DNA of 64,000 nucleotides from Dictyostelium discoideum (lineage: Eukaryota), in the NCBI GenBank assembly GCA_000004695.1, contig CM000152.2, forward strand, positions 3,136,001 to 3,200,000. Reading direction: 5' to 3'. The notes beneath the pieces were generated by a model, which searched no databases, had not been told where the DNA came from, and was given only the letters and a program-made list of their open reading frames with translations. Shown here one piece after another: positions 63,505 through 63,622 of this stretch. Both the position numbers and the translations under genes were made by a program. Positions within the stretch are counted from its first letter, which is position 1. Each line of letters begins with the position of its first letter.

Positions 63505-63622
63505 GGTTAAATAATAATGATTTTTTTGTTGATTGAATTTGCTGAATTTTATTTTAAATAATTAAGTTTTTTAAATAAAATTCAGCAAATTCCACCAAGT
63601 GAAAAATCATAATTATTTAACC
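63505..63622. repeat. Foldback hairpin of about 118 nt with a perfect 20-bp inner stem.
   Basis: The inner stem GAATTTGCTGAATTTTATTT (63535-63554) pairs with AAATAAAATTCAGCAAATTC (63573-63592) across an 18-nt loop. The outer arms GGTTAAATAATAATGATTTTT and AAAAATCATAATTATTTAACC pair with 2 mismatches. Confidence 0.5.

Follow-up and report, generated by a model that had tools for sequence, protein, structure and literature searches.

A Dictyostelium discoideum foldback hairpin derived from a fragment of a lost FNIP-repeat gene, probably a neutral relic

The interval between staB and a BPI-like gene on chromosome 3 of Dictyostelium discoideum contains a strongly folding hairpin which, judging from the comparison with sister species, originated within the D. 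discoideum lineage as an inverted duplication of a fragment of a resident FNIP-repeat gene. We regard it as probable that this hairpin is a neutral foldback relic of the dead gene and, if it is transcribed, a Dicer substrate at most. The foldback itself, at positions 63505-63622 of the window (the whole 64-kb stretch of DNA that was analysed, which is very AT-rich, with 15-32% G+C), is real, non-random and far beyond what chance would produce.

The original prediction described this segment as a foldback with a perfect 20-bp inner stem, an 18-nt loop and near-complementary outer arms, and the description holds in each of these respects. The inner arm GAATTTGCTGAATTTTATTT is followed across the loop by its exact reverse complement, and the outer arm GGTTAAATAATAATGATTTTT pairs with its counterpart at 20 of 21 positions (Table 1). 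A search for inverted repeats recovered the hairpin as 64-nt arms (63500-63563 and 63564-63627) that are 86% complementary, and weaker pairing reaches beyond the core stems as far as the limits of the palindrome given in Table 1. The fold prediction that had been proposed as a check shows the 118-nt core to be strongly folded as RNA on either strand (z about -11): the MFE is -44.3 kcal/mol on the plus strand (z -10.7) and -44.7 kcal/mol on the minus strand (z -11.8), or about -0.375 kcal/mol/nt, and 0 of 200 shuffled sequences folded equally well. A 151-nt version reaches -54.7 and -54.2 kcal/mol, and the palindrome folded as DNA gives -41.9 kcal/mol (z -10.8). When perfect stems were defined by a length of 14 bp or more, 3 or more G/C in each arm and a loop not exceeding 80 nt, the inner stem (63535-63592) was the sole one in the 64-kb window; 60 block-wise shuffles of the window yielded no such stem, and their longest was 13 bp.

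The window holds a second inverted repeat that is not of low complexity, with 59-nt arms (21962-22020 and 22159-22217) that are 98% complementary across a 138-nt spacer. It is relatively G+C-rich, has a long T-run just upstream (about 21895-21917) and would give a longer and stronger duplex than the hairpin at 63505-63622.

Table 1. Parts of the hairpin and other mapped features, in window coordinates
Feature	Position	Strand	Remarks
tRNA gene	7611-7692	+	Sole match in the window at the Rfam gathering threshold
Small ORF with one intron	63016-63127 + 63243-63257	+	Translation MFPNSNGPNKMKALVAPSNSSTTSKTNNNNLPPNGRS and, across the intron, IFGP*; not called as a gene in the assemblies
FNIP-gene remnant frame LFKIKFSKFNQQKNHYYLTKNSIPSTVEELSFNKIPIIVMIYL	63433-63561	-	Spans left arm and left flank; from translation, tblastn and blastn
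Whole imperfect palindrome, ~147 nt	63491-63637		Fold predicted for DNA and for RNA of both strands; z about -10 to -12
Outer stem, left arm GGTTAAATAATAATGATTTTT	63505-63525		Minus strand reads KNHYYLT of the FNIP remnant; invariant in 3 strains
Internal loop, left side	63526-63534		T-run whose length ranges from 7 to about 19 T among strains
Inner stem, left arm GAATTTGCTGAATTTTATTT	63535-63554		G>A in L006; 9 nt (GAATTTGCT) missing and one further substitution in L004
Terminal loop, spacer of the inverted duplication, 18 nt	63555-63572		Two sites polymorphic between strains
Inner stem, right arm AAATAAAATTCAGCAAATTC, inverted copy	63573-63592		Invariant in 3 strains
Internal loop, right side CCACCAAGT	63593-63601		Keeps ancestral FNIP bases lost in the left arm; outgroup state GATGG retained in L004
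Outer stem, right arm AAAAATCATAATTATTTAACC	63602-63622		Derived T>A mismatch in AX4; perfectly paired in wild strains
Hairpin sequence stretch GAAUUUGCUGAAUUUUAUUU and its complement			

The three tandem 157-amino-acid CBM49 proteins encoded in the window correspond, residue for residue, to StaB, StaA and DDB_G0280277 of strain AX4. The hairpin had originally been placed at the edge of this tandem array, just downstream of a diverged third copy of an orphan exon. The first part of this placement stands only loosely: the hairpin is near the array, but about 800 bp beyond its edge, because homology to the sta unit stops about 200 bp after the third sta gene (at ~62,700). The second part was not borne out, as neither blastn nor tblastn matched the ORF at 63016 to those at 59244 and 61151. 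The stop codon of this small ORF is about 250 nt, and its AATAAATAAAG signal about 200 nt, upstream of the hairpin, and the BPI-like gene follows about 630 bp downstream.

The neighbourhood varies among strains and species. The tandem sta (CBM49) array (58120-62496) has 3 copies both in the AX4-type window and in D. citrinum, whereas two wild D. discoideum strains have 4 and D. dimigraforme has 2. In all species, the spacers that separate the sta copies contain a short ORF (MKLNFIGGQNRQGPTTSSNKPSGRS...), and a gene is called at the site of this ORF in D. cf. discoideum. The small ORF at 63016 is found in the wild D. discoideum strains with 84-86% amino-acid identity, and by eye also in D. citrinum (L002, about 12810-12917 + 12999-13013), where the intron position, the ...SIFGP* end and the AATAAATAAAG signal are all as in D. 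discoideum.

For comparison within the species, we used an independent assembly, GCA_054883475.1 (L001), and two further, wild strains (L004 and L006). The window and L001 show a net 6-nt difference within the AT-rich segment 62496-63400, so that their coordinates are offset by 59022 at staB but by 59028 at the hairpin; the sequence around the hairpin is otherwise identical. The hairpin is present in L001 and in both further strains and is therefore not an assembly artefact. The D. cf. discoideum locus (L005, 10475-20474) shares the upstream synteny, namely, allantoicase, an ammonium transporter, a C39 peptidase and one sta gene. Synteny ends directly after this single sta gene and other genes come next, which indicates a rearrangement or an insertion at the array. 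Neither the hairpin nor the BPI-like gene was found within 10 kb in L005, which is uninformative on the hairpin because it is rearranged downstream of the single sta gene. A protein search with the first exon of the BPI-like gene returned no match; words of poly-E probably swamped the candidates.

The origin of the hairpin is apparent from two sister species, D. citrinum (L002) and D. dimigraforme (L003), in which the gene order at the sta locus, located via the sta proteins, is as in D. discoideum. Both carry an intact minus-strand gene for a 281-amino-acid FNIP-repeat protein (PF05725), placed after the last CBM49 gene and before the BPI-like gene; no gene is called at this position in any of the three D. 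discoideum assemblies. By blastn, the left arm of the hairpin together with its left flank is collinear with the FNIP coding sequence, with 83% identity to D. citrinum (L002, 13447-13511) and 78% to D. dimigraforme (L003, 11945-12006), and the right arm aligns to the same FNIP segment as the left arm, reversed. The minus-strand frame that runs through the left arm (...LTKNSIPSTVEEL...) matches FNIP residues 152-172 (DKIQYNLTKHSIPSTVENLTL) of both sister species in tblastn.

A multiple alignment relates the two arms to each other. Compared with both outgroups, both arms have a deletion of about 21 nt and carry GCTGAATTTTATTT in place of GTTG(T/C)(T/A)TTTTAATTT. Because these derived states are common to the two arms, the arms are copies of each other that were made after the split from D. 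citrinum. The right arm keeps, in part, the ancestral bases CAC.TTGATGG, where the left arm has a T-run. Beyond the arm fragment, only the 3' flank of the FNIP gene is recognisable in D. discoideum. The orthologous FNIP segments of the sister species form no hairpin (MFE of -7.5 to -25 kcal/mol, as against about -54 kcal/mol), and the hairpin, found in all three D. discoideum assemblies, is present in neither of them. Presence in sister species had been named at the outset as a point on which the prediction would turn, and here the outcome went against it.

This in situ homology bears directly on the proposal, also part of the original prediction, that the foldback is the remnant of a MITE or of another non-autonomous DNA transposon, with the terminal inverted repeats forming the stem. 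The inverted ends and the small size, about 120-150 nt, would suit such an element, and in D. discoideum the MITE-like thug-S elements do give rise to miRNAs; terminal inverted repeats are indeed present, but trivially so, as in any palindrome. Against this origin, both arms show homology to coding sequence of the FNIP gene that occupies the same syntenic position in the two sister species, and the left arm is continuous with additional FNIP sequence. The sister species have an intact FNIP gene at the site rather than an empty site. No direct repeat that could represent a target-site duplication was detected at 63491/63637, 63494/63637 or 63505/63622, where the flanks are inverted and not direct. 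Further copies of the arms were found neither in the 64-kb window (at up to 3 mismatches) nor, outside the orthologous site, in about 100 kb of related loci. On the homology at the same position, the missing target-site duplication and the lack of additional copies in the available sequence, we rejected the transposon origin, to which we assign next to no probability.

Comparison of the strains shows how the hairpin has changed since it was formed. It covers three D. discoideum strains only, two of them nearly identical. All three have a long hairpin, with MFE values from -43 to -55 kcal/mol. Substitutions affect 8 of 111 nt in the stems and 6 of 153 nt in the flanks, and none of the 60 consensus pairs shows a compensatory (double) change, both counts being of low power with three strains. 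The stems thus vary at least as fast as the flanks, and the pairing is without constraint between strains. In L004, the loss of 9 nt between two GAATTT repeats, together with one substitution, has removed the greater part of the inner stem. The outer stem of the wild strains is perfect over 32-34 bp, and for this reason the outer-stem mismatches of AX4 are taken to be derived. AX4 and the wild strains are about 89-90% identical over the 300-nt hairpin region, compared to about 82% over the whole intergenic region, the remainder of which is low-complexity and indel-rich.

The ancestral hairpin reconstructed for the three strains has perfect arms of about 33 and 20 bp, and all four of its arm-to-arm differences fall inside about 10 nt at the internal loop, with about 53 nt identical. 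This clustering exceeds what uniform neutral decay would give, and selection or gene conversion between the arms is possible. The T-run of the internal loop appears to be a mutational hot spot, because its length is polymorphic between strains, and this explains the clustering in part.

The strain data, along with the comparison across species, also weigh on the idea that the hairpin is a cis-acting structural element for the neighbouring units, either as DNA (a cruciform, a boundary or an origin) or as RNA (a 3'-end or termination hairpin). Its location beyond the AATAAATAAAG signal that belongs to the small ORF on its upstream side (which ends at ~63257) and upstream of the BPI-like gene would be appropriate for such a role, as would the strong fold as DNA. 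However, the flanking genes are shared by D. citrinum and D. dimigraforme, which lack the hairpin, and the pairing is unconstrained between strains. We know of no precedent for such cis-acting elements in Dictyostelium and consider this reading highly improbable.

The structure of the hairpin raises the question of whether it gives rise to small RNAs. The original prediction held that stems of about 20 and 21 bp fit Dicer-type processing, and as a statement on structure this is right: the hairpin is long and near-perfect and lies within the structural limits applied to D. discoideum miRNA precursors (an MFE lower than -0.2 kcal/mol/nt and pairing over 60% or more of the duplex), with a value of -0.375 kcal/mol/nt, about 55 bp of stem and two near-perfect segments of about 20 bp (20/20 and 20/21). 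These limits belong to the high-confidence miRNA criteria of Kozomara & Griffiths-Jones as used for D. discoideum in Liao 2018 (PMC6161686), which for reads call for 10 or more on each arm, 3' overhangs of 2 nt and a 5' end common to 50% or more of them (PMC6161686), as well as for dependence on DrnB/RbdB.

Accordingly, the hairpin could be a young hairpin-RNA (hpRNA) or miRNA gene. The locus would be transcribed by Pol II, through read-through of the upstream plus-strand small ORF or from a T-rich promoter of its own, and DrnB/RbdB would process the outer and inner stems of the transcript to give 21-nt duplexes, one or two in number, for loading into Argonaute. Several observations are compatible with this scenario. 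D. discoideum precursors with two adjacent duplexes exist, namely, mir-1180, mir-7102 and mir-1185 (Liao 2018, PMC6161686), and ddi-mir-1184 provides a precedent for a miRNA hairpin in a pseudogene exon. Dictyostelid miRNAs are nearly all species-specific, and in Amoebozoa long hairpins nearly free of mismatches, such as dfi-mir-1190, described as 'young', have been taken as new miRNAs (Edelbroek 2024, PMC11014262). The hairpin is kept in all three D. discoideum strains, and the mismatches between its arms are concentrated in one internal loop. T-rich tracts lie upstream on both strands, as in any Dictyostelium intergenic region, and because such tracts are present in every one of these regions, we gave no weight to the T-rich, G-ending motif of pri-miRNA promoters.

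Other evidence speaks against a young small-RNA gene. The hairpin is missing from the tables of miRNAs and candidates in Liao 2018, Meier 2016 and Edelbroek 2024, which were compiled with miRDeep2, ShortStack and custom pipelines from libraries of growth and development, where being unlisted does not mean that there are no reads. Evolution is no slower in the stems than in the flanks, compensatory changes were not observed, and a wild strain has the 9-nt deletion in the inner stem. The parent FNIP gene is gone from D. discoideum, and there is no close paralogue that could serve as a target: a search with the D. citrinum FNIP protein at E <= 1e-10 returned only the query itself, in an incomplete database that, for these new assemblies, missed the D. 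dimigraforme orthologue as well. Taken as a whole, the evidence makes a young hpRNA or miRNA gene at this locus unlikely. The specific form of this proposal, a newborn hairpin restricted to D. discoideum that derives from a dying FNIP gene and is transcribed and diced by DrnB into 21-nt RNAs, we hold to be more doubtful still.

Correspondence to RNAs that are already known was also considered. Searches for 11-17-mers of the arms, in DNA and RNA spelling, gave no hit in any of three supplements (Liao 2018, Edelbroek 2024 and Meier 2016), and sub-sequences of the arms were not found in a searchable literature of 8 million full texts. The only miRNA loci on chromosome 3 in the published tables are mir-1182 and mir-7097, at 3.66 and 3.74 Mb. 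A known D. discoideum miRNA was rejected on the basis of the three supplements searched. The best Rfam matches to the hairpin were generic AT-rich miRNA hairpins with at most 30 bits, against thresholds of 53-139, and a known RNA family was likewise rejected, with no match at the gathering level. In the rest of the window, 21-mers of the hairpin with up to 2 mismatches matched low-complexity AT sequence only.

We favour the reading of the hairpin as a neutral foldback relic of the FNIP gene, and its history might be reconstructed as follows. The common ancestor of D. discoideum, D. citrinum and D. dimigraforme carried the minus-strand 281-amino-acid FNIP gene in the interval that separates the last sta gene from the BPI-like gene. 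On the way to D. discoideum, the bulk of this gene was deleted, and a segment of about 65-85 nt (roughly residues 137-172) was copied in inverted orientation beside itself, with the 18-nt spacer between the copies. Foldback priming at a break, or template switching there, is a likely route and would also have removed the 5' part of the FNIP gene. The product was a near-perfect palindrome of about 147 nt that then decayed slowly and independently in different strains, probably without acquiring a function. Transcription, if there is any, would yield an RNA duplex of about 55 bp, a possible substrate for the Dicer-like enzymes of Dictyostelium; being cuttable only under this condition, the hairpin would represent raw material for a new small-RNA gene, not an established one.

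D. citrinum has a palindrome of its own in the intergenic region between the sta and FNIP genes (L002, 12558-12593 and 12619-12654), with a perfect 36-bp stem, a 25-nt loop and an MFE of -46.6 kcal/mol (z -12.1). D. discoideum has a homologue of the left arm only (~62757-62800), and the D. citrinum palindrome is an independent, species-specific inverted duplication. Given this separate case, local inverted duplications seem to be recurrent in the region, which fits a mutational origin of the D. discoideum hairpin without function.

By itself, the hairpin would be a small neutral relic, and its value is that of a dated example of the birth of a near-perfect hairpin in an AT-rich amoebozoan genome. 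The handles for dating are the FNIP gene, intact in two sister species, the palindrome, fixed in one species, and the early decay across three strains. It is a clean natural case of hairpin birth from coding sequence in Amoebozoa, and function is not implied. A very fast turnover of dictyostelid miRNAs has been reported, with discussion of the gain and loss of whole 'modules' and of gradual stem-loop remodelling (Edelbroek 2024, PMC11014262); the phrase 'inverted duplication' does not occur in the main text of that article. Should the hairpin prove to be a newborn small-RNA gene after all, it would be the first documented birth of a miRNA or hpRNA by inverted duplication of coding sequence in Amoebozoa, with the ancestral gene intact in D. 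citrinum and D. dimigraforme for comparison. Diced reads from the hairpin would provide a concrete mechanism of miRNA birth; if it gives none, the hairpin would be useful as a negative control and would show that mutation alone gives rise to miRNA-like hairpins.

Among known systems, the nearest in kind are the dictyostelid miRNA precursors mir-1184, mir-1180, mir-7102, mir-1185 and dfi-mir-1190, which are likewise AT-rich hairpins (105-256 nt), species-specific and located in intergenic regions or pseudogenes; some of them are nearly free of mismatches and some contain two adjacent duplexes (PMC6161686, PMC11014262). They differ from the hairpin in being defined by precise, DrnB-dependent 5p and 3p reads, and the hairpin is absent from the tables that list them; its MFE of -0.375 per nt is at the weak end compared with the published range for dictyostelid miRNAs, about -0.39 to -1.04. 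The MITE-like thug-S elements of D. discoideum, which carry miRNA loci, are also small, bounded by inverted repeats and able to fold back. However, thug-S is multicopy, whereas the hairpin is single-copy in the available sequence and derives in situ from a resident gene.

Young plant MIRNA genes are a parallel for the coding origin. In a model reportedly advanced by Allen et al. in 2004, such genes, including Arabidopsis MIR161 and MIR163, arise by inverted duplication of a protein-coding gene. The hairpin resembles them in that both of its arms are homologous to one coding gene, in opposite orientation, in that complementarity extends well past one 21-nt duplex, and in that the locus is young and lineage-specific. 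In the plant genes, the parent or a paralogue survives as the target, whereas in D. discoideum the duplication would have destroyed the parent and there is no close homologue; the FNIP protein search (E <= 1e-10, in an incomplete database) brought up no surviving parent or paralogue. Drosophila hpRNAs and the inverted-repeat pseudogenes of mouse oocytes usually extend over hundreds of base pairs and have documented siRNAs and targets in trans. They share with the hairpin an inverted repeat of gene or pseudogene sequence and the potential for a long, near-perfect intramolecular dsRNA, but the D. discoideum hairpin measures about 55 bp, has no evident target and is known from sequence alone.

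Finally, foldback (palindromic) inverted duplications are known to arise at DNA breaks or by template switching during replication. In the present case, the mechanism is read from the end product, without an established junction microhomology. The hairpin has in common with such duplications the adjacent inverted copies, the short spacer and the deletion next to them, and a second example is found in the intergenic region of D. citrinum.
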